From contig JANOLC010000329.1 of assembly GCA_031419575.1 (NCBI GenBank), forward strand, positions 1 to 33,042: a DNA stretch of 33,042 bases, in the 5' to 3' direction. The position numbers and the translations under genes are program-made. Positions 2,634 through 23,067 of this stretch are shown here, piece after piece. Source of the stretch: Burkholderiales bacterium. GTDB taxonomy: Bacteria > Pseudomonadota > Gammaproteobacteria > Burkholderiales > Burkholderiaceae_C. The notes below the pieces were generated by a model that was given only the letters and a program-made list of their open reading frames with translations, was not told where the DNA came from and did no database searches. How positions within the stretch are numbered: the first letter of the stretch is position 1; every line of letters begins with the position of its first letter.

Positions 2634-4032
2634 AGCGTTGGCCGATGCCCTGCATGATGGCTTGCCCGGTGCCCTGGCAGACCCGCTCACCGCCCTGGGT
2701 TGGTGGGCTTTGCAGTTCACCCCCAAAGTGGCGCGCGCGGGGTTGGATCAAGCGCAAGACCTGCTGGTTTTGGAGGTGTTGGCCAGCGAGCGACTGTTTG
2801 GAGGGCGGCAACAGCTTCTACAGCAAATGTTTGAGATAAATAAGCCTGTAGTCCCCGTCAAGTATGCACGGGGCGCTACTTCTTTAATAGCAATAGCCAG
2901 ACTGAAATCACTCCAATCCTTACCCGCCAGCCAGCCTAATGACCTGTCGCTTGCCACACTGGCAGCCGCCCACCCCCACCTGCCCACGCTGGCGCGCATC
3001 GGTTGCACCCACTGGGGACACTTGCGTGCGCTGCCGCGTGGCGGCGTGGTACGGCGCTTTGGCGCAGATTTGCTGGATGCGCTGGACTGCGCCTATGGCC
3101 TCAAACCCGAGCTGTACCCCTGGTTGGTGTTGCCCGAGGTATTTGAGGCCCAACTGGAGTTGCTCGCCCAGGTTGAGACTGCACCCGCCCTGATGTTCGG
3201 CGCACGCCGCCTGCTCAACCAGTTGCAGGCCTGGCTGCAAATGCGCCAGTGCGGCGTTCTGGCGTTAGAGCTGGGCTGGACCATGGACGCGCGGCGCAAC
3301 ACGGCCACCACCGGGGAACTGGTGGTACGCACGGCACAGCCCACGCTGGACATGGCCCACCTGCAACGCCTGCTGTCTGAAAACTTGGCCCGCATCACGC
3401 TGCCTGCCCCCGTGTTATCCCTGCACTTGCGCACGCTGGAAACTGGCAAGCTGGGAAATCAAAGCCTCAGTTTGCTGCCCGACGCGCAGCGTCCTGGCGA
3501 CAGCCTGCACCACCTGTTAGAGCGTCTGAGTGCCCGGCTGGGGCCAGAGAACGTGTTGCACTGCGAAGCCCACGCGGATCACCGGCCCGAGCACATGCAG
3601 GTGTGGCAACCCATCTCATCCACTTCTAAATTAGTAGCAAACTATTTATATTTAACGGGGACTTCAGGCCTAAATGATGCACAAATCAGGAAAAAAAAGT
3701 CAGCAAAGCCGTCAAAAACCACAGAGTCGGCCGGCGACGCGCTGTATCCCACCTGGCTGCTGGCCCGGCCCCTGAAGTTGGCCGTGCATCACAACACGCC
3801 CGTCTATCAAGGCCCGCTGACCCTGCTGGCGGGGCCGCAGCGGCTGGAGGCCGGATGGTGGAGCGCTACGACGGCCCTGCGCGACTACTTTCTGGCGCAT
3901 AGCGAGCAGATGGGGCTGCTGTGGATTTACCGGGAGCGGTTGACGGCGGCGCCAAAGCCACAGGCGCAGTCCAGCGGGCAGAGCGAGGCTGGCTCGGGAC
4001 CGGACTGGTATTTGCATGGCTTGTTTGGATAG
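2602..4032 (+). CDS. imuB: ImuB, Y-family-polymerase-like protein of the SOS mutagenesis cassette
   Basis: Start set at ATG 2602 (MHWIALQLQPEAL, a typical ImuB N-terminus) rather than the ORF-track start at 2476. It overlaps imuA by 32 nt. The protein contains LEVLASERLFGG. It sits between imuA and dnaE2 and carries two AT-rich repeat insertions (about 2838-2915 and 3613-3722) that stay in frame. Confidence 0.85.
   Translation: MHWIALQLQPEALADALHDGLPGALADPLTALGWWALQFTPKVARAGLDQAQDLLVLEVLASERLFGGRQQLLQQMFEINKPVVPVKYARGATSLIAIARLKSLQSLPASQPNDLSLATLAAAHPHLPTLARIGCTHWGHLRALPRGGVVRRFGADLLDALDCAYGLKPELYPWLVLPEVFEAQLELLAQVETAPALMFGARRLLNQLQAWLQMRQCGVLALELGWTMDARRNTATTGELVVRTAQPTLDMAHLQRLLSENLARITLPAPVLSLHLRTLETGKLGNQSLSLLPDAQRPGDSLHHLLERLSARLGPENVLHCEAHADHRPEHMQVWQPISSTSKLVANYLYLTGTSGLNDAQIRKKKSAKPSKTTESAGDALYPTWLLARPLKLAVHHNTPVYQGPLTLLAGPQRLEAGWWSATTALRDYFLAHSEQMGLLWIYRERLTAAPKPQAQSSGQSEAGSGPDWYLHGLFG
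2849..2893 (-). repeat. Repeat copy A (core, reverse orientation, partly diverged), inside imuB
   Basis: The reverse complement reads TTGCT-ATTAAAGAAGT-AGCGC-CCCGTGCATACTTG-ACGGGGACTA, with the same 5/11/5/14/10 spacing as the other copies. The right flank CAGGC is shared with copy B. It is an AT-rich island in a roughly 70% GC gene, translated as PVVPVKYARGATSLIAIA. Confidence 0.65.
3620..3664 (+). repeat. Repeat copy B (core), inside imuB
   Basis: CCACT-TCTAAATTAGT-AGCAA-ACTATTTATATTTA-ACGGGGACTT. The AT-rich flank extends to about 3722. Translated in frame as SKLVANYLYLTGTSGLNDAQIRKKK. Confidence 0.8.
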
Positions 4033-4051
4033 CAAGGTGGAGACAGCGTGC

Positions 4052-7000
4052 ATGACCATTGCCCCCGCCTACGCCGAGCTGCATTGCCTCACCAACTTTA
4101 GCTTCCAGCGCGGTGCCTCGCACGCGGAGGAGCTGGTGGCGCGTGCCCACGCACTGGGCTACGCGGCGCTGGCCATCACGGATGAATGCTCGGTGGCGGG
4201 TGTGGTGCGCGCGCATGTGGCGGCCAAAAAGTGGGGCTTGAAGTTGCTGCCGGGGGCCGAGTTCATCTTCCCCGATGGTTTCAAGCTCATCGCTTTACCG
4301 CACAACCTGGTGGGCTGGGGCAACCTGTGTGAATTCATCACCGCAGCGCGGCGTGCGGCCCCCAAAGGCGCGTATGAACTGAGCTGGGAACACAGCGATT
4401 TTGACCTGCTGGATGCGTGTGAAATTTTGTTGACGCCACCCCGAGTTGCTATTAATTTTGAAGCGATATATGCCCGCTGCATGCGGACTTCGGTCTTGTT
4501 TGGCACCAGACTTTGGCTGGCAGTTGAGTTGTTGCACAGTTTGGACGATGACCTTTGGCTGCACACCCTGACGCGTGTGTCTGTGCTGTTGGACGTGCCA
4601 CTGGTGGCGGCGGGCAACGTACACATGCATGTGCGTTCGCGCAAGCCGCTGCAGGATGTGATCACGGCGGTGCGCCTGGGCCGTTCGGTGGCTGAGTGCG
4701 GTTATGAATTGCAGGCCAATGCCGAGGCCCACCTGCGAGCACGCCAGCGGCTCGCTGCTATTTACCCACTCGAGTTGCTGGCCAACACGCTGGCCGTGGC
4801 CGCGCGCTGTAGTTTCAGCCTGGATGAGCTGCGTTACCAGTACCCGGTGGAAACCGTGTTGCCGGGCCTGAGTCCCGCGCAGACCCTGCGGCATTTCACG
4901 GATGAAGGTGCGCTGGAGCGTTACCCGACAGGTATGCCAGGGAAGGTGCAGCAGCAGGTGGCGAACGAGCTGGCGCTGATCACCGAGTTGAAGTACGAGA
5001 TGTACTTTTTGACGGTGTTTGACATCGTGCATTTCGCTCGCAGCATCGGCATCCTGTGCCAGGGCCGCGGTTCGGCGGCCAATTCGGCTGTGTGTTACTG
5101 CCTGGGTATTACCGAGGTCAATCCGGTCGACGGCAACCTGCTTTTTGCGCGGTTCATCTCCAGAGAGCGCAACGAGCCGCCCGACATCGACGTGGACTTT
5201 GAACACGACCGGCGTGAAGAGGTCATCCAGTACATCTATCAAAAATATGGCCGTGAGCGTGCTGCGATTGCGGCCACCGTGGTCACCTACCGGCCCCGCA
5301 GCGCCATCCGTGATGTGGGCAAGGCGCTGGGCGTGGCGGACGACCTGATCGACCGCTTTGCCAAGGAGCATTTCTGGTTTGATGGCGGCGTGATGCACGA
5401 GCATGCGTTGACCGAATGGTTATCCGTTCGCCCTGAGCTCAACCCGAACGCAAGCAACACAACGTTTGTTCATAGCCGTGACAACATTCAGCAATGGCTG
5501 GAGCTCACCAAACAGTTGCTGGGTTTCCCCCGTCACCTGAGCCAGCATGTGGGTGGCTTCGTGTTGACGCAGGGAAAACTCACGCGCCTGGTGCCGGTGG
5601 AGAACGCGAGTATGGTCGATCGGTCCATCATCCAGTGGGACAAGGACGATCTCGATGCGGTGGGCCTGCTCAAGGTCGATGTGCTGGCCCTGGGCATGCT
5701 CAGTGCCATCCGCCGCTGCCTGGAACTGGTCGGCCAGCAGCGCGGCACCACGATGCGCATGCAGGACGTTCCCCGGGAAGACAAAGCCACTTACGACATG
5801 ATCTGCGCCGCCGACACCGTGGGCGTGTTCCAGATCGAAAGCCGCGCACAGATGAGCATGTTGCCGCGCCTCAAACCCCGCGAGTTTTACGACCTGGTGG
5901 TCGAGGTGGCCATTGTGCGCCCCGGCCCCATTCAGGGTGGCATGGTGCACCCTTACCTCAAGGCCCGACAGGATCGTGAGAATGTGAAGTACCCCAGCGA
6001 TGCATTGAAACAGGCGCTGGAGCGTACCCTGGGCATTCCGATTTTTCAGGAGCAGGTGATGCAGATCGCCATCCTGGCGGCTGACTTTTCACCGGGTGAG
6101 GCCGATGAGCTGCGCCGCTCCATGGCCGCGTGGAAACGCTCAGGCGGTGTGCACAAGTTTCACGACCGGCTGGTGCTTCAGATGGTCAAAAACGGCTACC
6201 AGCCTGAGTTTGCCGAGAACATCTTCAAGCAAATCCTGGGCTTTGGTGAATATGGGTTTCCTGAAAGCCACGCCGCCAGTTTTGCGCAACTGGCCTACGT
6301 GAGCAGCTGGCTCAAATGCCATGAGCCCGCCTGTTTCTTGACCGCCCTGCTCAACTCACAACCCATGGGGTTCTATCCTGCCCCGCAACTTGTCTACGAC
6401 GCCAAACGCCATGGTGTGGAAGTGCGCGCCGTGGATGTCATGCGCAGCGGCTGGGACTGCACGCTGGAGCCCCTTGTCGGAATCAGCCAAGCCCCTGTCC
6501 GTCTTGGCTTCAATCTGGTCTCCGGCCTGAACCAGTCTGCCGCAGAGCGCATCGTCACTGCGCGAGCAGAAGCCCCCTTCACCAGCACCGAAGACCTGGC
6601 CCTGCGCGCCGCCCTCGCCGCTGGTGACCTCAAAGCCCTGGCCAGTGCCGACGCCCTGGCCGCACTCTCTGGTCACCGCCGCCAGCAGGTGTGGGACGCA
6701 TCAGCCCTCAAACCCGCCCCACCCCTGCTCAGAAGCGTGCCAGTCCATGAAGTGCCCCTGCTGCTGGATGCCGCCAGCGAAGTCGAGGAGGTGGGGTTTG
6801 ACTACGCCTCTATCGGTCTTACCTTGCGCCGTCACCCGCTGGCCATTCTGCGCGAACCCTTGACCCGCATGAAGCTGCTCACCGCCGCCCAGATGCACGA
6901 CCTCCCCCATGGCCGGCGGGTGCGCGCCTGTGGCATCGTCACCGCGCGCCAGCAGCCGCCCACCGCCAAGGGCGTGGTCTTCATCACCTTGGAGGACGAA

Positions 7001-7243
7001 ACCGGCACCGTGAACGTGATTGTGTGGAAGCGCCAGCGCGAAAAACAGCGCGAGCAAGTGCTCAAGTCACGCCTACTGGCGGTGGTGGGGGTGTGGCAGC
7101 GCAATACGGAAGATGCAGAAGAAGATAAAGCGAATCCTTCGGGGAAGCACCAGGGTGAAGTCCGCCACCTGATCGCTCACCACCTGATTGACCTTAGCCA
7201 CCTGTTGGGTGAACTGGCGACCCAGAGCCGGGAGTTTCATTGA
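4052..7243 (+). CDS. dnaE2: Error-prone DNA polymerase DnaE2 (ImuC)
   Basis: Start set at ATG 4052 with the Shine-Dalgarno sequence AAGGTGGAG at 4034-4042. The N-terminus YAELHCLTNFSFQRGAS is the PHP domain. Pol III alpha core motifs are present (GRGSAANSAVCYCLGIT, PPDIDVDFE, FQIESRAQM). About 1063 aa, and last gene of the imuAB-dnaE2 cassette. Confidence 0.95.
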   Translation: MTIAPAYAELHCLTNFSFQRGASHAEELVARAHALGYAALAITDECSVAGVVRAHVAAKKWGLKLLPGAEFIFPDGFKLIALPHNLVGWGNLCEFITAARRAAPKGAYELSWEHSDFDLLDACEILLTPPRVAINFEAIYARCMRTSVLFGTRLWLAVELLHSLDDDLWLHTLTRVSVLLDVPLVAAGNVHMHVRSRKPLQDVITAVRLGRSVAECGYELQANAEAHLRARQRLAAIYPLELLANTLAVAARCSFSLDELRYQYPVETVLPGLSPAQTLRHFTDEGALERYPTGMPGKVQQQVANELALITELKYEMYFLTVFDIVHFARSIGILCQGRGSAANSAVCYCLGITEVNPVDGNLLFARFISRERNEPPDIDVDFEHDRREEVIQYIYQKYGRERAAIAATVVTYRPRSAIRDVGKALGVADDLIDRFAKEHFWFDGGVMHEHALTEWLSVRPELNPNASNTTFVHSRDNIQQWLELTKQLLGFPRHLSQHVGGFVLTQGKLTRLVPVENASMVDRSIIQWDKDDLDAVGLLKVDVLALGMLSAIRRCLELVGQQRGTTMRMQDVPREDKATYDMICAADTVGVFQIESRAQMSMLPRLKPREFYDLVVEVAIVRPGPIQGGMVHPYLKARQDRENVKYPSDALKQALERTLGIPIFQEQVMQIAILAADFSPGEADELRRSMAAWKRSGGVHKFHDRLVLQMVKNGYQPEFAENIFKQILGFGEYGFPESHAASFAQLAYVSSWLKCHEPACFLTALLNSQPMGFYPAPQLVYDAKRHGVEVRAVDVMRSGWDCTLEPLVGISQAPVRLGFNLVSGLNQSAAERIVTARAEAPFTSTEDLALRAALAAGDLKALASADALAALSGHRRQQVWDASALKPAPPLLRSVPVHEVPLLLDAASEVEEVGFDYASIGLTLRRHPLAILREPLTRMKLLTAAQMHDLPHGRRVRACGIVTARQQPPTAKGVVFITLEDETGTVNVIVWKRQREKQREQVLKSRLLAVVGVWQRNTEDAEEDKANPSGKHQGEVRHLIAHHLIDLSHLLGELATQSREFH
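4446..4490 (+). repeat. Possible degenerate repeat copy F, inside dnaE2
   Basis: TTGCT-ATTAATTTTGA-AGCGA-TATATGCCCGCTGC-ATGCGGACTT. Spacing is identical to the other copies but identity to the consensus is only about 58%. It is a local AT-rich patch in a GC-rich gene. Could be chance. Confidence 0.35.
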
Positions 7244-7260
7244 CGGGAGTATTGATAATT

Positions 7261-7305
7261 TTGCTTCTAATTAAATAGCAAACGATTGAATATCAACGGG
7301 GACTT
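7261..7305 (+). repeat. Repeat copy C (core), intergenic between the convergent genes dnaE2 and betC
   Basis: TTGCT-TCTAATTAAAT-AGCAA-ACGATTGAATATCA-ACGGGGACTT. With its flanks it fills nearly the whole 81-nt spacer (7244-7324). Confidence 0.85.
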
Positions 7306-7324
7306 TCGGCCAATTTCATATCCA

Positions 7325-8869
7325 TCAAGGCCGTGGAAACCGCGCCCGCCGCTCCAGATCATCCAGGTCAATGTGGTTGCGCATGTACTGCTGGCTGGCA
7401 TCCACCATAGGCTGATGGTCCCAGCTGGTGAGCTTGCCTTGGGTCAGCGCGCCGTCTACAAACCGGCGGCGGCGCTGGCTGGCCAGCACCTGGGCGTGCA
7501 AGGTGGGCATGTCCCAGCGTTTGGCAGTCTCAGCCAGGAAGTCGTTCAACAAGGCTTGGTGTTCGGGGGTAATTGACGTCGTGGTCGAGTTAGCCAGGTT
7601 GTTCAGTTCATCCGGGTCATTCGCCAGGTTGAACAGCAGGCACGGATCCTGGGTGGAGTAGATGAATTTGAAGTCGCCCCGGCGAATCATGATCAAGGGA
7701 GCATTGGTGCCTTCGGCGGTGTATTCGCCAATCACTTCATCGTGCCCGCCCGTGCCTTGCAGGTGAGGCAGGAGCGACCGGCCATCCAGCGGCAGTGAGG
7801 CGTCCAGGCTGCCCCCTGCCAGTGCCACAAAGGTGGGCAACAGGTCGATGGTGGAGACACTGGCCGCCACCTTCTGCGCGGCAAAACGGCCCGGTGCATG
7901 GATCACCAGGGGCACGCGCGCCGCCATCTCAAACCAGTGCATCTTGTACCAAAGGCCACGTTCACCCAGCATGTCGCCATGGTCGCCCGAGAACACAATA
8001 ATGGTGTCGTCCCCCAGGCCGCAGTCGTTCAGCGTTTTGACGAGTTTGCCAATGTTGGCATCGATGTAGCTGCACGCGCCAAAGTAGGCGCGACGCGCGC
8101 GTTTAATCGCCTCGGGCGGCATGGTCTGGCCCCACAGGTCAATCACTTTCAGGATACGTTGCGACTGCGGGTCTTGGCTGTCCTGCGCGATGAAATTGCG
8201 TGGCATGGGCACGTCATCGTCGTTGTACAAATTCCAGAACTCGGCCGGAATGGTGTATGGGTCGTGCGGGTGCGTCATGGACACCGTCAGGCAAAACGGC
8301 TGGTCCGGCGTGTTGCGCACATGGTCAAACAAATACTGGCTGGCCTTGAACACCACCTCGTCGTCAAAGTCGAGCTGGTTGGTGCGCACACACGGCCCGG
8401 CCTGCAAGACCGAGGACATGTTGTGGTACCAGCTGGCGCGCACGTCGGGTTCGTCCCAGTTCACGGCCCAGCCGTAGTCGGCCGGATAGATGTCACTGGT
8501 CAGGCGCTCTTCATACCCATGCAACTGGTCAGGGCCACAAAAATGCATCTTGCCCGACAGGGCGGTGCGGTAACCCAGGCGGCGCAGGTAGTGGGCGTAG
8601 GTGGGCACATCAGCCGCAAAATCGGCGGCGTTGTCATAGGCACCAATTTTGGACGGCAACTGGCCACTGACCAGGCTAAAGCGCGACGGCGCGCACAGCG
8701 GGCTGTTGCAGTAGGCCGAGTCAAACACCACACCACTGGCCGCCAGGGCGTTCAAATGCGGCATCTTGATGATTGATGCGGCATCGTGCAGGGGCAGCAG
8801 AGGTGCGGCCATCTGGTCGGCCATGATGAACAGGATGTTGGGTTGTTTGGCACGTGGGGCAGTGGTCAC
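7325..8869 (-). CDS. betC: Choline-sulfatase (Cys-type sulfatase)
   Basis: Start set at GTG 8869, preceded by AGGAG (8879-8875) with 5-nt spacing. The longer ORF-track N-terminus has no sulfatase similarity. Contains KQPNILFIMADQ and the formylglycine motif SPLCAPSR. At 514 aa, its length and C-terminal region fit choline-sulfatase. Confidence 0.85.
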   Translation of the reverse strand: MTTAPRAKQPNILFIMADQMAAPLLPLHDAASIIKMPHLNALAASGVVFDSAYCNSPLCAPSRFSLVSGQLPSKIGAYDNAADFAADVPTYAHYLRRLGYRTALSGKMHFCGPDQLHGYEERLTSDIYPADYGWAVNWDEPDVRASWYHNMSSVLQAGPCVRTNQLDFDDEVVFKASQYLFDHVRNTPDQPFCLTVSMTHPHDPYTIPAEFWNLYNDDDVPMPRNFIAQDSQDPQSQRILKVIDLWGQTMPPEAIKRARRAYFGACSYIDANIGKLVKTLNDCGLGDDTIIVFSGDHGDMLGERGLWYKMHWFEMAARVPLVIHAPGRFAAQKVAASVSTIDLLPTFVALAGGSLDASLPLDGRSLLPHLQGTGGHDEVIGEYTAEGTNAPLIMIRRGDFKFIYSTQDPCLLFNLANDPDELNNLANSTTTSITPEHQALLNDFLAETAKRWDMPTLHAQVLASQRRRRFVDGALTQGKLTSWDHQPMVDASQQYMRNHIDLDDLERRARFPRP

Positions 8870-8959: not shown

Positions 8960-9985
8960 ATGACAACCTACGACCTCTACGCCATTGGCAACGCTTTGGT
9001 GGACTCTGAATACGAAGTAACGGACGCCCAGCTGCAAGCCATGGCCGTTGAAAAACGCCACATGACCTTGATTGATGCCGCCCGTCGGAGTGACTTGTTG
9101 GCGCATGTCAAAGACATCCATTCGCGCCGCAGTGGCGGTGGCTCAGCGGGCAACACCGTGGTGGCCCTGGCACAACTGGGTGGCAAAGCGTTTTATGCCT
9201 GCCGCGTGGCCAATGACGAGCTGGGTGCGTTTTACGCCAAAGACTTGCGCGCCAATGGCGTGGGCAGTAATCTGCAGGATGCCCCTTTGGCCGACCCCTC
9301 TTCAGTGGCCACCGGTGAATGCATGGTGATGGTCACGCCCGACACCGAGCGCAGCATGAGCACGTTTTTGGGAGCCACCGCCGAGCTGGACTACCACGCA
9401 CTGCGCGCCGATGTGATTCGCCAGGCGAAGGTCTATTACATGGAAGGCTACCTGGCGGCTCAGCCCAATGCACTTGATGCCGCGCTTAAAGGCCGTGCCA
9501 TCGCACGAGAGGCGGGCGTCAAGCTGGCTTCGACCTTAAGCGACATGAGCATGATTAACTTCTGTCGCCCTGGCCTGGAGGCTATTTTGGGCGATGGTTT
9601 GGATTATTTGTTTTGCAACGAAGAAGAAGCCCAGACCTGGTGTGGCACCCAGGACATGGACGCCATCTACAAACAGGTGAGCCAATTGGCGACCGTGGTG
9701 TGCCTGACGCGCAGCGCCAAAGGCTGCGTTGTGCTGGAAGGCGGGCAACAAACGGCGGTGCCCGCAGCGCAGGTCAAAGCCGTGGATACCAACGGTGCGG
9801 GCGACATGTTTGCTGGGGCGTTCTTATACGCAGTCACTCAAGGCCACAGCCACGCTGATGCGGCGTGGTTGGCCAATCAGTCTGCCGGGCAGGTGGTGAG
9901 CCAATATGGCAACCGGTTGACGCTGGACGCGATGCGGCAGATCAAGCTGCGGTTTGAGCAGTACATCAAGCCTCACTCCGCTTGA
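8960..9985 (+). CDS. PfkB-family kinase, adenosine-kinase-like
   Basis: Start set at ATG 8960 (MTTYDLYAIGNALVDSEYEV). The PfkB signature DTNGAGDMFAGAFLY lies near the C-terminus. 341 aa. Divergent from betC. Confidence 0.8.
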   Translation: MTTYDLYAIGNALVDSEYEVTDAQLQAMAVEKRHMTLIDAARRSDLLAHVKDIHSRRSGGGSAGNTVVALAQLGGKAFYACRVANDELGAFYAKDLRANGVGSNLQDAPLADPSSVATGECMVMVTPDTERSMSTFLGATAELDYHALRADVIRQAKVYYMEGYLAAQPNALDAALKGRAIAREAGVKLASTLSDMSMINFCRPGLEAILGDGLDYLFCNEEEAQTWCGTQDMDAIYKQVSQLATVVCLTRSAKGCVVLEGGQQTAVPAAQVKAVDTNGAGDMFAGAFLYAVTQGHSHADAAWLANQSAGQVVSQYGNRLTLDAMRQIKLRFEQYIKPHSA

Positions 9986-10561
9986 AACTGGCTGGCATTT
10001 TTGCCCTTGAACGGCGCGTAAAACGCCTTAATTCGAATCATGTCGGCATCAATGTCCCCGCTGGGGTGAAACACCGGCCCCAGCCCGCTGATCTTTTTCT
10101 CAAAGTCCATATAGGCCATCACGATGGGAACCTGCGCCCCCACGGCGATGTAATAAAAGCCGGTTTTCCAGAAGCGGGTGTTGCTGCGGGTGCCTTCGGG
10201 AGGCACGACCAGTTGTAGCGGGCCGTCGGCTTGTTGAATGGCTTCGATGGAGGCGGCGACCAGGTTGCTGGACTTCGCGGGTCACGGGGATGCCGCCCAG
10301 CCACATCATGAGGCCGCGAAATGGGGGCTTGAAAATTTGCTCTTTGCCCATCCAGTAAATGTGCAGGCGCAGGCTGAAGGCCACCATCAGCGTGTAGGGC
10401 AAGTCCCAGTTGCTGGTGTGGGGCGCAGCAATGAACACGCTCTTGTCGCAGTTGGGGGGCAGGCTTCCCAGCACCTTCCAGCCGGTGAGTTTGAGGAGGC
10501 TGACGGAGAGCACGCGCAATACGGTGTTGACGATGGGGGTGTCGAAAATAGTGCGGTGCAT
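9973..10561 (-). pseudogene. PlsC-family 1-acyl-sn-glycerol-3-phosphate acyltransferase-like gene interrupted by a 1-nt frameshift
   Basis: The N-terminal ORF (10561 to about 10277) has the HX4D motif (AAPHTSNWD) and ends in GGIPVTR. Reading resumes one base out of frame at 10275 as KSSNLVAASIEAIQQADGPLQLVVPPEGTRSNTRFWKTGFYYIA, which includes the PEGTR block. Joining the halves gives about 195 aa. The shift is at about 10276. Confidence 0.75.
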
Positions 10562-10695
10562 GGCGTGTGGAAACGGTGCCGCTGAAGGCGAAGGTGGGAG
10601 GGGGGCAGTGGGTCGCAGGTTAGACTTGATTTGCCATCTGCTCAGTCTGAAGGGCCGCCTGATGCCGCGCTGGTTGTGGAATTGTCGTCTTAAAA

Positions 10696-11145
10696 ATGAG
10701 GATTTTAAATCTCGATATGGTGATGAACGTCAATGAGTTGTTGGGCCAGGAATGGGTCACGCTGCAAAACAATTTCGAACAATATGAACGCAGCGCCCTG
10801 GCCCTCAAGGGATGCAGCTTGGTGATTTGTTTTGCGGGATTGCTCATGGCACTGGATGCCAATTTGATGGCTGCTGTGATGCTGGTGTGCTGGTTGCAAG
10901 AAGGTATTTTCCGAACCTTTCAGTCGCGGCTGGGGCATCGAATTTTGAAGATCGAGTCGCTGATTGCGCAGGGCGCGTTGTCGTCATCAGCCCCCTTGCC
11001 ATTTCAGCTTCATTCCGAATGGCTGGCTACGCGCCGAAGTGGTGTGGCTTTGTTGCAAGAGTACGCCGCCAGCGCCTGTAGGCCTACGGTGGCTTACCCG
11101 CATGGTTTGTTTTTTGTGGGCTTTTTGATTCTGGGGCTGTGGTGA
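10696..11145 (+). CDS. Small hypothetical membrane protein (KdoH1-like by context only)
   Basis: 149-aa ORF with hydrophobic segments (CSLVICFAGLLMAL, LMAAVMLVCWL and C-terminal GLFFVGFLILGLW). Its stop overlaps the GTG start of the downstream BNR gene. The start is uncertain (10696, 10717 or 10723). I recognise no family. Confidence 0.5.
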   Translation: MRILNLDMVMNVNELLGQEWVTLQNNFEQYERSALALKGCSLVICFAGLLMALDANLMAAVMLVCWLQEGIFRTFQSRLGHRILKIESLIAQGALSSSAPLPFQLHSEWLATRRSGVALLQEYAASACRPTVAYPHGLFFVGFLILGLW

Positions 11146-13002: not shown

Positions 13003-14853
13003 TCAGCGCTTTACCAACAACCACTCACGTGTGAACAGCCAGGTGTGCGCATACCAAAGGTTGGCCCGCGTGACGTCCCCACTTTTGTGGCGCTCTTTCA
13101 CCACCCAGCGTGTGGCAACCACCTCGCAATCAGGCAGGCACGCCGGGGAAGTTTCAGTGGAGGCTGAAGGGCCCCACACTACCGCGTCATGCGTTTCCAA
13201 AAGCTGGGTGAGCTTTGGCGCAGAGTCGTTGCTGTCCGTTATGACAGCCATGTCAAAGGGCTCGAAGTGATTGCCGGGCAACAAAAACTGAAACCGCTCG
13301 TATTGCCCCCGAAAGTTGCTGGGTACTGCGATGCGGGCGTTGTTGAAGCGGGCTGCGACATCTGCGCTAAAACGACCAGACGGGCCGTCCAGCGGGGCCA
13401 CCGTCAGGTTGAAGCAGGCATAGAAACCCAGGCAGGCCGCCACCACGCCAACCCCTGTGAATCGGGTTTTGAGAAGCCCCGCCAGCGTGGCCAGTGCCCC
13501 CACGATCGCAAAAGCCATCACCCAGCCCAGCTCTAAACCCGAGGCAATCCCCAAATCATGTGCGACCCACGCAATGCGTCCCAAGGTCAGCGTGGCGATA
13601 CCCGTCAAAACATAGGAGGTCAAAAACCAGCCGCGCGGGATTCGCTCCCACACCAGTGCCATCACGATGGCCAGTGCGGGCATGGCGGGAATCACGTAGC
13701 GGGCCGAGCGCTGGCTGGGAATGCTGAACACCACCAGCCACACGGCCAGCCAGGCCAACAAAATCCAGAGGTGTGCGGGGATGGGATTTTTTATTGTGTG
13801 GATTTTTGAGAGGGAGGGTGTCTTCAGACTTCTCAGCCCCACCCAGGTCAGGCCAGGCACCAAAAAAGCCAGCAAACCCGCATTCTGCATGTAGGCCAGG
13901 GCCTGCGCCCACAGGCTGGCATCTCCCCCGTAAAGTGCCTCGTGCCAATAGCCCTTTTTGTCGGACATCTTGCCTGCGTTTTCACCAATGACGAACTCCT
14001 GCCACACGGCAACCGGGTCAGGGTCCAGCACAAACCACAGCCCAAAAATACCCAGGGCCAGCACCGCGCTGACAAACACACCGCCTGATACCTGAACTGC
14101 GCGCCGCCACGTCAACGCGGGCTCACTCAACAGCAGTGCACACCAGAACGCTGCGGCGGCGGGCGCGATCAGCGCGAACGATTTGTAGGCGGAGCCCAGC
14201 CCCCACGCGACCCCAAGCCCCAAAACAGATGCTACTGAAATAATAGCAATGTATTGATTATTGACGGGGACTTGAAGCACATTTGATACCAGAAATTGGG
14301 TAGAAACCTGTTTGGACGGCTGGTTTGAGCGGTTCTGGGCCAGTCGCACCCATAGCAACCCAAACAGCGGCAAGTCCAGCCAGAAGGTCTCTGGCGCGCT
14401 GGTCAGATAAGGGCGTCCGTAGCGAAAGGTGCAAAAAAAGCTCAAATAGACGCAGGCGGCAATCAGGGCGCTGCGCTGGCTGCGGGTGATGGCATGGGTG
14501 GTGTAGCCAACCGCAGCGGTGATCAGCCCGGTGTAAATCAGGCTTGGCAAGCGCAAGGCAAACAACGTCCAATGGTCGCCCCAGTTGCCCGCGACCATCG
14601 CCTGCCAGAACAACAACGGCGGCTTGGTGTTGCGCATGGCTTCGAACTCAGACGCCAGCGGCAGCCAGTGCCCCGTGGCAGCGGTGACGCGGGCGATGTG
14701 GGCATACACCAGCTCGTCGCCATTGGTGGGGATGTACTGGCCGCTGATCCCGAAAACGTAGACGGCGATGGCCAGTGCCAGCAAGACCCACCACAGCGCG
14801 ACCGGCGCGTCGCGTGCGGTGTGATGGGCACCACTGCGGCCGGGCGCTGTCAT
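13003..14853 (-). CDS. Glycosyltransferase family 39 (ArnT/PMT-like, lipid-linked sugar donor)
   Basis: 616-aa polytopic protein. The N-terminal GDELVYAHIA...GHWLPL motif is typical of ArnT/PMT-type transferases. It follows a GtrA-family gene. It contains repeat copy D in frame. Confidence 0.8.
   Translation of the reverse strand: MTAPGRSGAHHTARDAPVALWWVLLALAIAVYVFGISGQYIPTNGDELVYAHIARVTAATGHWLPLASEFEAMRNTKPPLLFWQAMVAGNWGDHWTLFALRLPSLIYTGLITAAVGYTTHAITRSQRSALIAACVYLSFFCTFRYGRPYLTSAPETFWLDLPLFGLLWVRLAQNRSNQPSKQVSTQFLVSNVLQVPVNNQYIAIISVASVLGLGVAWGLGSAYKSFALIAPAAAAFWCALLLSEPALTWRRAVQVSGGVFVSAVLALGIFGLWFVLDPDPVAVWQEFVIGENAGKMSDKKGYWHEALYGGDASLWAQALAYMQNAGLLAFLVPGLTWVGLRSLKTPSLSKIHTIKNPIPAHLWILLAWLAVWLVVFSIPSQRSARYVIPAMPALAIVMALVWERIPRGWFLTSYVLTGIATLTLGRIAWVAHDLGIASGLELGWVMAFAIVGALATLAGLLKTRFTGVGVVAACLGFYACFNLTVAPLDGPSGRFSADVAARFNNARIAVPSNFRGQYERFQFLLPGNHFEPFDMAVITDSNDSAPKLTQLLETHDAVVWGPSASTETSPACLPDCEVVATRWVVKERHKSGDVTRANLWYAHTWLFTREWLLVKR
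14229..14273 (+). repeat. Repeat copy D (core), inside the GT39 gene
   Basis: ATGCT-ACTGAAATAAT-AGCAA-TGTATTGATTATTG-ACGGGGACTT. The AT-rich flank extends to about 14312. The minus-strand gene reads through it as LQVPVNNQYIAIISVAS. Confidence 0.85.
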
Positions 14854-14871
14854 GCCGATTTCATGCCGACA

Positions 14872-17795: not shown

Positions 17796-17879
17796 TTAAA
17801 TAAACTCCAATCAAAAGTTAAGTCAACCATTAATTTGCGTTGCTTTGGCTTCGGAGCTTCGGCGAACGCTTTAGCAGAT

Positions 17880-17906
17880 TTGCCAAAATTTTGAAAAATT
17901 TGGCAA
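17880..17906. promoter_or_regulatory. Palindrome TTGCCAAA-N11-TTTGGCAA in the divergent metK / lpxL-like intergenic region (candidate operator)
   Basis: Perfect 8-bp inverted arms read directly from the sequence (ttgccaaaattttgaaaaatttggcaa). The binding factor is unknown. Confidence 0.35.
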
Positions 17907-18005
17907 GGCACAATGGCGAACTTTCGAATCTTGAAAGATAGCCCTCGCACGTGTCGCCCTGCAAGTAGTTCCATAACTCAGCGACCCCCGTATTTTATCT
18001 GACTG

Positions 18006-18836
18006 ATGAATTCCCTTTTTCGAATCTTCGCAATGCTTCCCCTGTGGCTGGTACACGGGCTGGGTTGGGCCTTGGGCTGGTTGGTCTTTCTGGCGTCGGG
18101 CGTTTACCGCAAGCGGTTTCTTGCCAATGCGATGCAAGCAGGCATAGCCCGGCGCAATAGGCTCACTGCTGTGGGCGAAGCGGGCAAGCTGGTCGCCGAA
18201 TTGCCCCGCCTTTGGCTGGGCGATCCGTTGGCCGTGCAATGGGATGGGTTTGAGCACATTGACACGGCGCTGGCGACGGGGCATGGCATCATTTTTCTGA
18301 CCCCACACCTAGGCTGTTTTGAAATAACCGCCCAAGCGTATGCGCAACGTTATGGCCAATCCAGCCAGCCCATGACCGTGTTGTACCGCCCACCGCGCCA
18401 GCGCTGGCTGCGCGAGATTGTGGCAAACGCCCGTCACCGGCCCGGGTTGGACACGGCCCCCACCACACTGGGTGGCGTCAAACAAATGCTCAAGGCCCTC
18501 AAACGGGGGCAGTCGTTGGGTCTGCTACCTGACCAAGTGCCACCAGTGGGCTTGGGGGTTTGGGTGCCATTTTTTGGACGCGATGCCTACACAATGACCC
18601 TCTCAGCCCGTTTGGCCCAGCAGTCTGGTGCCACCGTGTTGACAGCCTGGGGCGAGCGTTTGTCCTGGGGTCAGGGTTTTGCAGTGCATGTACGCCCCCT
18701 CGATGCGGCACTGCCCCCCAACCCGGTAGAGGCTGCCGTCGTCATCAACGCGGCAATGGAGCGTTTGATCATGGAATGCCCCGGCCAGTACCTGTGGGGT
18801 TATGCCCGCTTCAAGCAGCCGCGTGCTGAAGTGTGA
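18006..18836 (+). CDS. Lipid A biosynthesis acyltransferase, LpxL/HtrB family (paralog 1)
   Basis: 276 aa. N-terminal membrane anchor, FLTPHLGCFE (a variant of the catalytic H-x4-D/E motif), and the C-terminal QYLWGYARFK typical of the LpxL family. Classical position divergent from metK. Confidence 0.8.
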   Translation: MNSLFRIFAMLPLWLVHGLGWALGWLVFLASGVYRKRFLANAMQAGIARRNRLTAVGEAGKLVAELPRLWLGDPLAVQWDGFEHIDTALATGHGIIFLTPHLGCFEITAQAYAQRYGQSSQPMTVLYRPPRQRWLREIVANARHRPGLDTAPTTLGGVKQMLKALKRGQSLGLLPDQVPPVGLGVWVPFFGRDAYTMTLSARLAQQSGATVLTAWGERLSWGQGFAVHVRPLDAALPPNPVEAAVVINAAMERLIMECPGQYLWGYARFKQPRAEV

Positions 18837-18855
18837 GCACAAGCATGATCGAGAC

Positions 18856-19740
18856 ATGAAAAAGTTGAGTGTTTTCTTGAGCCACTGCGGCATTTTTTTC
18901 ATGCAGGTTCTGGGACGCTTACCTCTGTCATGGGTGCGCGCTTTGGGCTGGATTTTGGGGTGGGTGCTGTACGCCGTTGCGGTGCCTCGGCGCAGGGTGG
19001 TCTGGATCAACCTGCGCTTGTGTTTCCCGCAATGGACCGCCGACAAAACCCGAACCGTGGCGACCCAAACCTTCGTTCACTTCGCACAAGCCTGGTTGGA
19101 CCGTGGCTGGTTATGGCATGGCTCACAGACAACTGCCAGGAGGCGACTGCGCATCCACGGTGCGGTTCATGCGTTGGAGGGCGACGGTGCCGTCGTCATT
19201 TTTGCGCCCCATTTCGTTGGGTTGGATGCAGGTTGGACGGCGTTGACCCAGCAAATCCCGCGCCGCTTCACCACCATTTATTCGCACCAAGCCAACCCGG
19301 TGGTGGACGATTGGGTGTTTGCAGGACGCCAACGGTTTGGTGAGGCCACGCTATTTGATCGGTTGGCAGGCCCCAAGCCGGTGTTGACCGCTTTGCGCAC
19401 CGGAGAGGCTTTGTATTTGCTGCCTGACATGAACTACGGCTTGCCCGAGTCCATTTTTGTGCCGTTTTATGGTATGCCTGCGGCGACGGTCACGTCACTG
19501 TCCCGCCTTGCCAAACTGGGCAAAGCCACGGTGGTCCCAGTGGTCACGCGCCTGACGCCCAGCGGTTACGACGTGGAGGTCATGCCCGCCTGGCGGGATG
19601 TGCCCAGCGATGACGTAGGTGCGGATACCCTCACCATGAACCAGCGGCTGGAAGGCTATGTGGACACCATGCCCAACCAGTACTACTGGGTTCACAAACG
19701 ATTCAAAGACCAGCCGCCAGGGTCGCCGTCGGTCTATTGA
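18856..19740 (+). CDS. Lipid A biosynthesis acyltransferase, LpxL/LpxM family (paralog 2)
   Basis: Start set at ATG 18856 (MKKLSVFLSH). Contains FAPHFVGLD (HX4D) and the C-terminal QYYWVHKRFK. 294 aa. Confidence 0.8.
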   Translation: MKKLSVFLSHCGIFFMQVLGRLPLSWVRALGWILGWVLYAVAVPRRRVVWINLRLCFPQWTADKTRTVATQTFVHFAQAWLDRGWLWHGSQTTARRRLRIHGAVHALEGDGAVVIFAPHFVGLDAGWTALTQQIPRRFTTIYSHQANPVVDDWVFAGRQRFGEATLFDRLAGPKPVLTALRTGEALYLLPDMNYGLPESIFVPFYGMPAATVTSLSRLAKLGKATVVPVVTRLTPSGYDVEVMPAWRDVPSDDVGADTLTMNQRLEGYVDTMPNQYYWVHKRFKDQPPGSPSVY

Positions 19741-20431
19741 TTTTGGGGTGAGCCCAGTCCCACAGCAGCATCGACACATCGTCAATGCCGATGCGTTTGG
19801 GCGCTGAAAACAATCGCACTTCGCCGCCACCCGATTGCAGCTTCATGATGGACAGGGCCTTGATCTGCTCAGACTTGTTCAGCTTGTCGGCTTTGGTCAA
19901 TACCACCAAAAACTTCAAGCCTTCGATCACGCGGGGGCGAATCACGTCCAGCAAAATTTCGTCCAACTCGGTCAATCCATGGCGCGGGTCGCACATCAGC
20001 ACGATGGCTTTGAGGTTTTCGCGCGTCACCAGGTAATTGGCCATCACCTGCTGCCAGCGGATCTTGTCCTGCTTGGGCACAGAGGCGTAGCCATAACCCG
20101 GCAAATCGGCCAAAACTGCGTCGGTGATGCCCTGTTTGCCCAGCGTGAACAGGTTGATACTTTGGGTGCGTCCCGGTTTTTTGGACGCAAATGCCAACTG
20201 TTTTTGCTGTGTCAACGTATTGATACAGGTGGACTTGCCCGCGTTGGAGCGGCCCACAAAGGCGATCTCGGGAACCTCCAGCGCCGGCAAAAAATGCAGT
20301 TGAGGCGCAGTGGTCAGAAATTTGGCGGTGTGCAACCAGCCGGTAGCGACCAGCGCTTGCGCTTTGGTTTCTACCGGGGGGGACTGGGGTGCGCTGGGCG
20401 CAGAGGGCGTTGGGTTTGTATTGGTGGTCAT
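19703..20431 (-). CDS. engB: Ribosome-biogenesis GTPase EngB/YihA
   Basis: 242 aa. G1 motif GRSNAGKST, then DLPGYG and TKADK. Its 3' end overlaps the second lpxL paralog by 38 nt (convergent). Confidence 0.9.
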   Translation of the reverse strand: MTTNTNPTPSAPSAPQSPPVETKAQALVATGWLHTAKFLTTAPQLHFLPALEVPEIAFVGRSNAGKSTCINTLTQQKQLAFASKKPGRTQSINLFTLGKQGITDAVLADLPGYGYASVPKQDKIRWQQVMANYLVTRENLKAIVLMCDPRHGLTELDEILLDVIRPRVIEGLKFLVVLTKADKLNKSEQIKALSIMKLQSGGGEVRLFSAPKRIGIDDVSMLLWDWAHPKINRPTATLAAGL

Positions 20432-20514
20432 TGCTACTTAAGGGGAAAACCCATATCGCCATTGTAGAATCATGCTGTTTTGCACCTCTGACCAGACACG
20501 ATACGACACTCCTT

Positions 20515-21204
20515 ATGAAGCTGCTTGCCCATCTGTTTACCCCCTTGCTGCTGGCTTCTGCCGTAGCCTTGACTTCTTATTCCGCCATCGCGCAAGAGGT
20601 CAAATCTGCTGCTCCCGCGGCTGAAGTCAAAGCCGAGGCCAAGCCTGCTGAAGCAAAAATCGCCAAACCAGACTTGACCAAAGGAGAGGCTAGCTACACG
20701 GCCGTTTGTGCCGCTTGCCACGCGGCAGATGGCAACTCTGGTACCCCTGCCAACCCCAAACTGGCGCAGCAGCACCCTGAATACCTGATCAAACAATTGC
20801 AGGAATTCAAATCCGGCAAGCGCAACAACGCCATCATGAAGGGTTTTGCCAGCACGTTGAGCGAAGACGACATGCGTAACATCGCGTACTGGGCCACTTC
20901 CAAGAAGGCCAAGCCCGGTTTTGCCAAAGAAAAAGAGCTGGTCACCCTGGGTGAACGTATTTACCGTGGTGGCATTGCCGACCGCCAAGTGCCAGCCTGT
21001 GCGGGTTGCCACAGCCCAAATGGCGCGGGCATTCCATCGCAATACCCACGCTTGAGCGGCCAGCACGCTGACTATGCGATTGCCCAGCTCACCGCGTTCA
21101 GGGACGGTGTTCGCAAGAACAGTCTGCAAATGTCGCAAGTGGCGGCCAAGTTGAATGACCGTGAGATCAAGGCCGTGGCCGATTACGTCGCCGGGCTGCG
21201 ATAG
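20515..21204 (+). CDS. Dihaem cytochrome c4
   Basis: Start set at ATG 20515 (signal peptide [27 protein letters not shown]). Two CxxCH motifs (CAACH, CAGCH). 229 aa. Classical engB-divergent position. Confidence 0.9.
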
Positions 21205-21259
21205 GTCTTATTGCAAGGGATCTGTATCGCCAGGGAACTATTTCGGGGTTTTGACCCCC

Positions 21260-21300
21260 AAAAAAGGCGGACCAGTCTCTGATTGGTCCGCCTTTTTTTA
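21260..21300. terminator. Rho-independent terminator, bidirectional in appearance
   Basis: A 9-bp GC-rich stem (GGCGGACCA at 21266-21274 pairing with TGGTCCGCC at 21284-21292) and a 9-nt loop. It is followed by T7 and preceded by A6. It lies downstream of the cytochrome c4 gene. Confidence 0.8.
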
Positions 21301-21367
21301 TTCCTGCCCTGCTTGTAAGAAATCGCTATCGATATCTACTAACAGGGAATATTTCAAAGGAGACTTC

Positions 21368-22372
21368 ATGCTGATCAAAACAGGCAACGACGGTTTCATC
21401 CATTCGATCTCCAGTGAGATCACAAGCGCTGCGGCCTATCAGGGGCGGCGTGATGCCCTGAAGCTGATGGCGACTGGGGTTGCCGGTGTGGCGATGGCCT
21501 CTTGGGCTTCGCGTGAGGCGTTGGCGCAAGGCGTGGTGCCCCGGCCCGGCAAGCTGGCCGCCTTGGCCGGTGCGAAGTCCTCTGTCGCTGGCGCAGTCAC
21601 CATGGAAAAGCTGACCGACTACAAAGATGCCAGCACCTACAACAACTTCTATGAATTTGGCACTGACAAAGCCGACCCCGGCAAAAACGCCCATACCCTG
21701 AAAACCACGCCGTGGACGGTTGAGGTGGAAGGCCTGGTCAAGAAACCTGCCAAGTACACGCTGGAAGACTTGCTCAAGCTCAGCGCGCAGGAAGAGCGCA
21801 TCTACCGGCTGCGTTGCGTCGAGGGCTGGTCCATGGTGATTCCGTGGGTGGGTTATTCACTGTCCGAGCTCATTAAAAAGGTGGAGCCCACGGGTAGCGC
21901 CAAGTACGTGGAATTCATTACCCAGGTCGACTCCAAAACCATGCCGTTTGTCGGCTCTCGCGTTCTGGACTGGCCCTACGTGGAAGGACTTCGGCTGGAT
22001 GAAGCCATGAACCCATTGACGCTTTTGACCTTTGGCATGTACGGCGAAGTGCTGCCGAACCAGAGCGGTGCACCCGTTCGTTTGGTGGTGCCGTGGAAAT
22101 ACGGCTTCAAAAGCGGCAAGAGTCTGGTCAAGATTCGCTTCACCGACAAAGAGCCCAAAACCGCCTGGAACAAGGCCGCAGCCAGCGAATACGGCTTCTA
22201 TTCCAACGTCAACCCCGATGTGGACCACCCCCGCTGGAGCCAGGCGACCGAGCGTCGCATCGGTGAAGAGGGCGGTCTGTTTGCCAAAAAACGCAAGACG
22301 CTGATGTTCAACGGCTACGAAGCCCAGGTCGGCCAGTTGTATGCGGGCATGGACCTGAAAAAGAACTTCTGA
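21368..22372 (+). CDS. msrP: Protein-methionine-sulfoxide reductase, molybdopterin catalytic subunit MsrP (YedY)
   Basis: Start set at ATG 21368 with AAAGGAG upstream. Tat-like signal ([18 protein letters not shown]). Contains [25 protein letters not shown] and [14 protein letters not shown]. Confidence 0.9.
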
Positions 22373-23064
22373 TGGATAGCGGCACCGCACCCGCCATGGC
22401 CACCGTGATCGCTACCAAGCTTGGTAAGGCCCTGCTGCGGCCTACAGCCAAACCGCTGCTGTTTGCGCTGTGCCTTCTGCCATTTGCGTGGTTGCTGTAC
22501 GCGGCCCTTGCCAATCAGCTCGGGGCCAACCCGGCGGAAGCTTTGGTTCGGTCAACGGGCGACTGGACGCTGCGGTTCTTGTGCGTCGTGCTGGCGGTGA
22601 CACCCCTTCGTGTGATGTTGAAAGTACCCGCGCTGGCCCGGTTTCGCCGGATGCTGGGGTTGTTTGTGTATTTTTATGTCGTGGTGCATCTGCTGAGCTA
22701 CAGCTGGTTTGACATGGGTTTTGATGTGGGTGACATCGCCCGCGACATCATCAAGCGCCCGTTTATTCTGGTGGGGTTCAGTGCCTTTGTTTTGCTGACC
22801 CCGCTGGCGGCCACGTCGTTCAACCGGGCCATCAAGGTGCTGGGAGCTAGGCGCTGGCAGCTGCTGCACAAGCTGGTCTACGGCGTGGCGGTGTTGGGCA
22901 TCCTTCACTTCTTCTGGATGCGGGCTGGCAAAAATAACTTTGCCGAGGTGCTGGTTTATGCCGCTATCCTCGCAGCCTTGCTGGGGTGGCGTTTGGTCGA
23001 GTTAATGAAGAAAAAGACCAGAAAGTCCCCGTCAAATATCAATAGTTCGCTATCAACTCGATAG
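22372..23064 (+). CDS. msrQ: Haem-binding membrane subunit MsrQ (YedZ)
   Basis: The ATG overlaps the msrP stop (TGATG). Polytopic protein with the conserved His-containing helices of the ferric-reductase-like family. The last 13-18 or so codons and the TAG stop lie within repeat copy E or its AT-rich flank (from about 23005). Confidence 0.85.
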   Translation: MDSGTAPAMATVIATKLGKALLRPTAKPLLFALCLLPFAWLLYAALANQLGANPAEALVRSTGDWTLRFLCVVLAVTPLRVMLKVPALARFRRMLGLFVYFYVVVHLLSYSWFDMGFDVGDIARDIIKRPFILVGFSAFVLLTPLAATSFNRAIKVLGARRWQLLHKLVYGVAVLGILHFFWMRAGKNNFAEVLVYAAILAALLGWRLVELMKKKTRKSPSNINSSLSTR

Positions 23065-23067
23065 CAT
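23023..23067 (-). repeat. Repeat copy E (core, reverse orientation), at the 3' end of msrQ
   Basis: The reverse complement reads ATGCT-ATCGAGTTGAT-AGCGA-ACTATTGATATTTG-ACGGGGACTT. It is translated in msrQ as KSPSNINSSLSTR followed by the stop. Confidence 0.85.

Follow-up and report, generated by a model that had tools for sequence, protein, structure and literature searches.

What kind of sequence recurs six times in one stretch of a Burkholderiales genome, mostly inside genes and in both orientations, and how did it come to stand there? The stretch in question, hereafter the window, is the whole of the 33,042 nucleotides (nt) analysed here (contig JANOLC010000329.1 of assembly GCA_031419575.1, positions 1 to 33,042). 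A first-pass annotation made from its letters had aligned six loci, A to F, over 45 nt, and regarded them as copies of an unrecognised structured repeat that inserts in frame into conserved genes; the six sequences are exactly as it quoted them. They belong to a dispersed repeat element with a few hundred copies per genome in related bacteria, whose copies differ between lineages in a consistent way, so that one can speak of dialects of the same unit. The shift of old copies to a new dialect is the most informative result, and most of what follows concerns it and the processes that could bring it about.

The profile with which the window copies were scored was built from copies in related genomes and not from the window. 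Copies B to E match it with E-values of 4e-16 to 7e-13, whereas A is a diverged member and F is borderline within the window (Table 1), and the proposal of a genuine dispersed family is thereby borne out. Moreover, the window contains eight occurrences of the 10-mer ACGGGGACTT with at most one mismatch, where 1.7 would be expected, and a count of eight was not attained in any of 100 dinucleotide shuffles. A repeat finder applied to the window groups B, C and D into one 59-nt family and aligns D with E (78% over 46 nt) and B with E (90% over 30 nt). The 45-nt cores of the window copies have a GC content of 31-49%, and their flanks one of 59-63%.

Table 1. Copies of the element in the window and one site that is empty in the window and filled in two relatives
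Feature	Position	Strand	Setting	Encoded peptide	Profile E-value
Copy A	2838..2898	-	inside imuB; diverged member with a 10-bp imperfect palindrome GTAGCGCCCCGT...ACGGGGACTAC	NKPVVPVKYARGATSLIAIA	6e-4 to 4e-3 (3' half alone matches)
Copy B	3618..3678	+	inside imuB, variable linker	STSKLVANYLYLTGTSGLND	6e-15
Copy F	4444..4504	+	inside dnaE2; weak	AINFEAIYARCMRTSVLFG	not significant in the window
Copy C	7259..7319	+	intergenic; fills the 81-nt spacer between the convergent stops of dnaE2 and a sulfatase gene		4e-15
Copy D	14227..14287	+	antisense in an ArnT/PMT-like glycosyltransferase gene (13003-14853, minus strand); loop	SNVLQVPVNNQYIAIISVAS	4e-16
Copy E	23009..23069	-	last ~18 codons and TAG stop of msrQ	KKKTRKSPSNINSSLSTR	7e-13
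Empty site	19736..19743	.	flanked by the second acyltransferase gene and a GTPase gene; two relatives filled		

A strict pattern fixed on copies B to E (TAGC-N5-ATTNA-N6-ACGGGGACTT) was searched in contigs representing one genome per species. At least 52 stretches matched, about 42 of them from one metagenome-assembled genome (MAG), that of the uncultured betaproteobacterium MFD02832.bin.2.65, and none of the matching loci overlaps the window. The remaining matches listed are in Burkholderiales, Betaproteobacteria, Polaromonas, Rhodoferax and Hylemonella MAGs; a single match in a Bdellovibrionales genome is due to chance. A profile made from the strict-match copies recovers 81 copies in about 0.4 Mb, with E-values in the family down to 1e-17. 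Excluding the copy by which each locus was ascertained, the density is about 1 copy per 18 kb, equivalent to a few hundred per genome, and the core is thus found well beyond the window, as the first-pass annotation had supposed. At the same imuB and dnaE2 sites, Rhodoferax relatives carry a second form, here called classical, which reads GCTAY-N7-RTAGC-TGCTTGCGCA-N6-ACGGGGGCTAGAGGC-cnATTTg. A pattern that fixes only the parts common to both forms matches at least 120 metagenome contigs, among which the classical form is dominant. The classical form at the same sites and its abundance in metagenomes show that the window family is the dialect, peculiar to one lineage, of an element that is widespread in Comamonadaceae, including Rhodoferax, Polaromonas, Hylemonella and related MAGs. 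Among 72,556 plasmids scanned, a Rhodoferax antarcticus plasmid has a classical copy, the only copy of either dialect found; none of 13 pattern matches in viral contigs is a real copy.

The window-type consensus reads ttGCTAC, seven AT-rich bases, RTAGC(A/T)AACTATTGA, about six variable bases, ACGGGGACTTCAGGC and TTTT. The order of its parts is GCTAY-N7-RTAGC, box 1, six variable bases, box 2 (ACGGGGACTTCAGGC in the window type) and a run of T. Information content rises at profile position 8 and drops after position 66, which gives a unit of about 58-60 nt with about 35 informative positions across 58 nt, and not the 65-110 bp first estimated. The similarity of the right flanks (CAGGC...TTT), which had suggested a longer unit, is real and belongs to the unit itself; the flanks quoted for C and D had been swapped. 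The family is a sequence motif of conserved boxes separated by variable bases, with a contrast between boxes and variable bases that is inflated by the ascertainment of most copies through the conserved boxes.

Copies of the element occupy orthologous sites across genera, and it is at these sites that the change of dialect is evident. At sites A, B and F the boxes are of the window type in the window, in L055 (a relative whose ImuB is 78% identical) and in L056, and of the classical type in L053 and in the Rhodoferax locus L054. The DnaE2 peptide switches with the dialect: one group has AIYSIVTRTSGLFG, the other AACAICIRARGLFG. Taking the MAG and the window together, 66 of 77 copies have CGGGGACT and none of the 77 has the classical CGGGGGCT. 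The classical box 2 is absent even from copies in which box 1 is still classical, and intermediate states of box 1 coexist. In A and F, the DNA matches the genome-specific consensus, with rare codons. The presence of window-type boxes at old orthologous sites indicates that copies older than the split of the lineages have shifted to the new dialect, except at bases that would create a stop codon. This argues against the copies being dead fossils and for some directional process acting on each of them, whether replacement by an enzyme, conversion, drive or selection.

The exception is seen in the reading frames. In each orientation of the classical consensus exactly one frame is open (forward, AINLIAACAYSTGARGLFD; reverse, SNRPLAPVEYAQAAIKLI), and 19 of the 23 classical copies inside genes use these open frames. 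The window-dialect consensus has stops in the same two frames, a TGA in ATTGAT and a TAG opposite CTATT. The stop-creating TGA is found in 0 of 5 internal copies and in 37 of 61 others (p = 0.013), and the stop-creating CTA in 0 of 9 internal copies and in 53 of 61 others (p = 4e-7), whereas at every other position the internal copies keep to the dialect. Two copies of the window are cases in point: B has TTA in place of the consensus TGA (TAT TTA vs TAT TGA), and in D the stop-creating CTA is changed to GTA (CAA TAC vs CAA TAG). About a fifth of the copies are read through as loop, linker or tail peptides of about 20 residues, and the in-frame reading of internal copies in several frames, first noticed in the window, is supported. 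The peptides of A and F match the element's two open-frame translations, that of A being the reverse-frame translation of the classical element, SNxP[LV]APVxYAQxAI.

Besides changing dialect at old sites, the element is gained and lost as a block. Copy D adds 23 codons to its gene: a 23-residue gap is found at this site in the orthologues P0178, P0196, P0201, P0202 and P0229, and the locus L054 is 69-70 nt shorter there. At the site that is empty in the window, the counterparts in L072 (7289-7351, E = 2.5e-13) and L073 (7326-7388, E = 6e-15) are filled; the window is 85-95 nt shorter than both, a difference that equals a unit plus spacer and may stem from either gain or loss, and comparison of the filled and empty sites gives no target duplication. 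At site B, the imuB orthologues of Rhodoferax contain the classical form, in the same position and reading frame, and more distant ImuB proteins have no element. Copy C, which is 15 nt and 5 nt from its flanking ORFs (open reading frames), is also present at the equivalent position in L055. Copy E supplies a tail to MsrQ: the family model stops at residue 220 of 230, and the tail is common to most relatives of 75-97% identity and missing in P0442. An apparent polymorphism for a second copy between L016 and L030 was discarded, the alignment being too poor.

Insertion with empty sites in relatives, as the first-pass annotation pictured it, fits at least D, with its 23-codon gap and one empty relative, but it fails for A and F. 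At site A, the DNA box GCTACnTCTTTrRTAGC, with its rare codons, is retained in imuB orthologues down to 41-47% identity. Distant ImuB proteins align across the site without gaps and without extra length, and the window ImuB is about 10 residues shorter there than the outgroups; a search of the PDB with ImuB gave nothing useful. The counterpart of F in L055 matches the profile with E = 4e-8, and the F segment aligns with E. coli DnaE residues with no added length. In L058 the gene adjoining imuB is not dnaE2, and there site F can be traced no further. As A and F lie over ancestral codons without a change of length, simple insertion does not explain them, and they may have arisen by replacement, by insertion with a compensating deletion or by conversion in place.

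The ungapped peptides at A and F bear on the simplest alternative, namely that there is no family and the loci reflect chance or ordinary conserved coding sequence. The annotation itself had pointed to two observations that would speak for this, absence of the core elsewhere and matching peptides in distant homologues: the core is abundant, whereas peptides of the second kind do occur at A and F, in distant ImuB and DnaE homologues. Set against the hundreds of intergenic copies in several genomes, the empty sites in orthologues and the fit of even A and F to the genome-specific repeat consensus at the DNA level, these peptides leave the alternative hardly credible, and for the family as a whole it is refuted.

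The context of the copies was classified with a crude gene finder based on GC content at the three codon positions. Of the window-type copies (81), 34 are intergenic, 27 overlap a gene end and 20 are inside an ORF, with a coding fraction of 0.81; the classical copies (105) are distributed as 60, 22 and 23, with a coding fraction of 0.74. The impression that copies are mostly inside genes holds for the window, where four of six are internal, one is at a gene 3' end and one is intergenic, but the intragenic share is only 22-25% family-wide. The element is depleted in genes, yet about a fifth to a quarter of its copies are internal. In the MAG, 15 of 17 host ORFs have clear Pfam domains, and the host proteins include MiaA, DapF, NadE, a radical-SAM protein, a FemAB-like protein and malonyl-CoA decarboxylase. 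The internal copies of the MAG are mostly in linkers or termini, or in domains 20-22 residues longer than the Pfam profile (the FemAB-like domain 22 residues longer, the epimerase domain 20).

Outside genes, 64 non-internal copies face gene 3' ends and 37 face 5' ends, and the spacers comprise 15 convergent, 23 tandem and 5 divergent ones, so that divergent, promoter-bearing spacers are avoided. Both orientations are present, and no bias was found relative to neighbouring genes, gene strand or GC skew (20 concordant, 24 discordant); in tandem spacers, 9 copies are co-oriented with transcription and 14 anti-oriented. Within the window, the imuA-imuB-dnaE2 SOS mutagenesis cassette (1815-7243) has four copies (A, B, F and C) in 4.5 kb, a density far above the family mean. 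These four copies prompted the idea of a bias toward genome-maintenance genes, which was rejected, since such genes account for 0 of the 17 MAG genes with internal copies.

The shift of orthologous copies to a new dialect without any change of length is what one would expect of a host recognition motif, such as an uptake-signal-like sequence or a nucleoid-protein site, homogenised by drive or selection through point mutation. DNA uptake sequence (DUS) dialects in Neisseriaceae and uptake signal sequence (USS) types in Pasteurellaceae evolve likewise, with dialects changing in place. In the same direction point the orthologous copies, including A and F in conserved codons, that follow the lineage dialect, the lack of any remaining old-dialect copy alongside coexisting intermediate states of box 1, the equal frequency of the two orientations, and the fit of internal copies to the dialect everywhere except at stop-creating positions. 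However, an element of ~58 nt with ~35 informative positions at 1 per 18 kb is far from uptake sequences, which have cores of 9-12 nt at about 1 per kb; whole units are gained and lost as blocks, copies are dense in a low-GC, probably acquired island, and genome-maintenance genes are not enriched among the hosts. We therefore consider a host motif quite unlikely. A site for integration host factor (IHF) was examined as one such candidate and rejected: the window-type consensus contains WATCAANNNNTTR, but this is kept in only 13 of 76 copies, and the classical type is without it.

The first-pass annotation had called the element structured, noting that the paired bases of a short hairpin differ between copies, as selection on a structure would have it. 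Most copies do have a short palindrome, with the C-G pair in 63 and the T-A pair in 71 of 76 copies, but its closing pair shows no covariation in 76 window-type copies (p = 0.53, Fisher's exact test) or in 125 classical ones (p = 0.32). Mutual-information scans give their highest values for adjacent columns only, with no long-range pairing. Folding energies have no real excess over shuffled sequences (mean z of -0.4 and -0.6), and the hairpin is found in 26 of 76 minimum-energy folds. At site A in imuB, there are 0 compensatory pairs across four orthologues. With neither covariation nor an excess of folding energy, the label structured is not supported.

These results also bear on the idea that the element acts as RNA, be it as a terminator or processing site, as a small RNA or as a cis-regulatory hairpin. 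The possible hairpin and the preference of copies for gene 3' ends would be compatible with such a role, but the copies show no preference relative to transcription in tandem spacers, promoter and terminator scans place no site at any copy, and Rfam has no match to the window at gathering score and none at the copies even at E-values up to 5. Together with the absence of covariation, these observations make a function as RNA very unlikely. Two sub-threshold Rfam matches, STnc250 and Xoo2 (E = 1.5 and 3.8), fall at 21244-21367 of the window, in AT-rich sequence around the 5' end of an msrP-like ORF (21155-22372), and are probably due to chance. A scan for tRNA and tmRNA genes found none.

Between the two ends, TTGCTAC... 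and ...GGCACTTTT, there is no complementarity, and the unit thus has no terminal inverted repeats. No k-mer of 3-8 nt is shared by both borders above the permutation background in 67 copies, and the information content of the flanks is about 0 bits, which gives neither a target duplication nor a target motif.

It is also evident that some copies keep particular company. In three unrelated contigs, direct copies every 0.7-2.2 kb separate toxin-antitoxin or defence cassettes (L040 2400-5100, L147 1-4936 and L109 1500-6100), with ParE/HTH, VapBC, HepT/MNT, a DUF2442 pair, Schlafen-AlbA2, HEPN/MNT, UPF0175 and MazE/PIN as cargo. The L040 array is within a low-GC stretch; that of L109 adjoins an IS4 transposase, and the 7-nt spacer, normally variable, is the same in its copies. 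Furthermore, in L093 (278-5879; metagenome contig Ga0073899_10013480), a complete cas9-cas1-cas2-CRISPR locus, with cas9 at 493-3567 and a 13-repeat CRISPR array of period 66 at 4913-5763, stands between two direct classical copies whose identity is 98% across precisely the 51-nt unit. Adjacent copies less than 6 kb apart are in direct orientation in 50 pairs and inverted in 30, the most similar pairs are all direct, and the closest are hundreds of nt apart. In L172 (9615-11270), three C-terminal fragments of UDP-glucose dehydrogenase lie downstream of the intact gene. As each of them adjoins a copy of the element, rearrangements may have taken place there repeatedly. A 300-nt direct repeat in L101 (2607-2906 and 5430-5729; 97% identical, 2.8 kb apart) also includes an element copy, and it is a larger duplicated segment and not two independent copies.

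The arrays, the bracketed Cas9 locus, the excess of direct pairs, the shared spacer in L109 and the gene-end fragments of L172 could be explained if the element were an att-like site of a site-specific cassette recombination system, comparable to attC or pdif, with solitary copies as landing pads. The palindrome with its 7-nt spacer might then be the crossover core and the boxes accessory sites. We regard both the site and this assignment of its parts as rather unlikely. Most copies are solitary and lie in core-genome spacers or housekeeping genes, at positions orthologous across genera, and attC's dyad symmetry and GTTRRRY / RYYYAAC cores are absent. In these short contigs the ORFs scanned include no integrase, and no recombinase adjoins the arrays, that of L109 having only an IS4 transposase beside it. 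The orientation of cargo relative to the element differs between arrays, and variable regions may simply gather both cassettes and repeats. In its broadest form, the idea would be a genome-wide cassette recombination of an unrecognised kind, in which hundreds of landing pads are kept uniform by co-evolution with one recombinase and toxin-antitoxin modules, and even a complete type II-C CRISPR-Cas9 locus, are inserted and exchanged; this we think improbable. If it were true, the copies in genes and in conserved codons would be by-products of the same homogenising activity.

Our preferred explanation, held tentatively and with less than even confidence, is a REP-like non-autonomous DNA element (after the repetitive extragenic palindromic sequences, REPs) recognised by a co-evolving trans-acting protein encoded elsewhere. 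To the family, its context, the frame filter, the orthology of sites and the dialect shift, as observed above, this adds an enzyme and a homogenising step, both of which we infer. The unit would first have spread as discrete blocks of 60-69 nt, and in genes only copies in the single open frame of each orientation would have survived. The boxes would be the recognition sequence of a DNA-binding enzyme acting in trans, transposase-like or recombinase-like, in the role that the REP-associated tyrosine transposase (RAYT) has for REPs. In the lineage of the window, the specificity of this enzyme may have drifted, and old copies would have been made to conform by repeated replacement through the enzyme or by short-tract conversion, with selection vetoing only the stop-creating bases during the change of dialect. 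The element would act as DNA and not as RNA, given that its orientation is unbiased with respect to genes, gene strand and GC skew.

Several points weigh against this explanation. No RAYT or IS200 TnpA was found by tblastn with one query sequence of each over about 480 kb, which is a weak test as it covers about a tenth of a genome. Defining features of REPs are missing, as there is no GC-rich palindrome and some copies are not extragenic. The exact borders of a recent insertion were not seen at any copy, and there is neither a target duplication nor a target motif. A selfish element should leave fossils of the old dialect, and none is seen among the 77 copies, while A and F, on ancestral codons without added length, are unexplained by insertion. 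In addition, the alternation of variable positions with near-invariant boxes is more suggestive of a binding motif than of recent copies.

Other observations concern the neighbourhood of the copies. A palindrome-box-like sequence, CACTACAAATTTGATAGCAAAG, is in a frataxin-like gene at 24862-24887 of the window and at the same place in L072. Of the profile it matches the 5' part alone (E = 0.03), and it could be a relic or due to chance. The last part of the window (24000-33042), with a PBP1-type gene and pilMNOPQ, has a GC content of ~50-54% against ~60% and contains no element copies. In L055, two PemK-type toxin-antitoxin modules (9606-11027) lie between imuB and dnaE2, genes that overlap in the window (4016-4032); no element copy is found at the borders of this insertion. 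In the same locus, dnaE2 is called as two ORFs and has a LexA-box-like palindrome, TACTGTATATTAATACAGTTA, in front of it.

Comamonadaceae are among the most abundant bacteria of freshwater, groundwater and glaciers, and a repeat with a few hundred copies per genome that is common in metagenomes appears to have gone undescribed in them. The element rewrites stretches of about 20 residues in housekeeping proteins, including conserved segments of ImuB and DnaE2. As a result, orthologous peptides track the dialect and not the function of the protein, which matters for alignment, annotation and tests of selection. The complete shift of dialect at old orthologous copies, limited only by the avoidance of stops, is a clean natural case of concerted evolution of short dispersed repeats, and it points to a trans-acting factor that could be traced by phylogenetic co-variation. 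That copies bracket defence and toxin-antitoxin cassettes, and one Cas9 locus as well, hints at a way in which cassettes could move. What makes the element more than a routine repeat is mainly that its dialect has shifted genome-wide, at old copies inside conserved codons, together with the cassette arrays.

With regard to novelty, full-text literature searches for the cores of both dialects and for work on REPs and RAYTs in these genera gave nothing relevant. The one betaproteobacterial repeat published as occurring in genes of Comamonadaceae, BRE, is reported from Polaromonas, Rhodoferax, Acidovorax and Delftia, and is sometimes wholly within coding sequences (Hot et al. 2011, PMC3110155). 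It is a GC-rich (69%) repeat of about 90 bp, often in tandem (TTTTTTTGGCCGCGGGCCGCCCAAGGCAAAAAAGCCCCC...; PMC3110155), and as the BRE sequences listed in that paper share nothing with our element, identity with BRE was rejected. Rfam gave no match to the element either, and it appears to be a short interspersed bacterial repeat undescribed within the searchable literature; the first-pass annotation had not recognised it as any described family. Insertion of a repeat in frame into protein-coding genes, where it is translated as an extra peptide, is known for the Rickettsia palindromic elements (RPEs; PMC3184786). Like these, our element stands in frame in conserved genes (B, D and E and 17 further MAG genes) and is retained at orthologous sites, but RPEs are palindromic, 105-146 bp long and belong to Rickettsia, whereas the element is 58-60 nt long, non-palindromic and mostly intergenic, with lineage-wide shifts of dialect. 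It differs from MITEs (miniature transposable elements with inverted repeats) in having neither terminal inverted repeats nor target-site duplication, and from IS200/IS605 derivatives (PATE) in having neither a fixed target tetra- or pentanucleotide nor a replication strand bias.

Lineage-specific consensus sequences and direct-oriented repeats that separate small toxin-antitoxin or defence cassettes recall attC sites, cassette arrays and CALINs (clusters of attC sites lacking integron integrases). However, the element has none of the R''/L''-L'/R' dyad symmetry or the GTTRRRY core of attC, its consensus contains only local hairpins, and its copies are overwhelmingly solitary and dispersed, with no integrase seen nearby. 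With DUS and USS it shares the occurrence in both orientations, inside and outside genes and at orthologous sites, and dialects that change in place under the constraint of the reading frame; it is much longer and ~20-fold rarer, and its whole units come and go as blocks. Compared with REPs and REPINs, the element is AT-rich and not a stable palindrome, whereas a REP is a GC-rich palindrome of 20-40 nt with a stable hairpin; copy A is the sole copy with a REP-like palindrome. Whereas REPs are extragenic, the element is inside ORFs in 20/81 and 23/105 copies, and its neighbours are mostly direct, with no inverted doublets or clusters like those of bacterial interspersed mosaic elements (BIMEs). 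Nevertheless, the likeness to REPs and BIMEs extends to the short unit without terminal inverted repeats or target duplication, the hundreds of chromosomal copies, the preference for gene 3' ends and convergent spacers, and the copies at conserved positions. The invariant (R)TAGC of the element recalls the GTAG head of REPs, although it is internal and is preceded by G in 14 of 76 copies and by A in 61. Moreover, REP palindromic units have a species-specific consensus, much as the element has its dialects.

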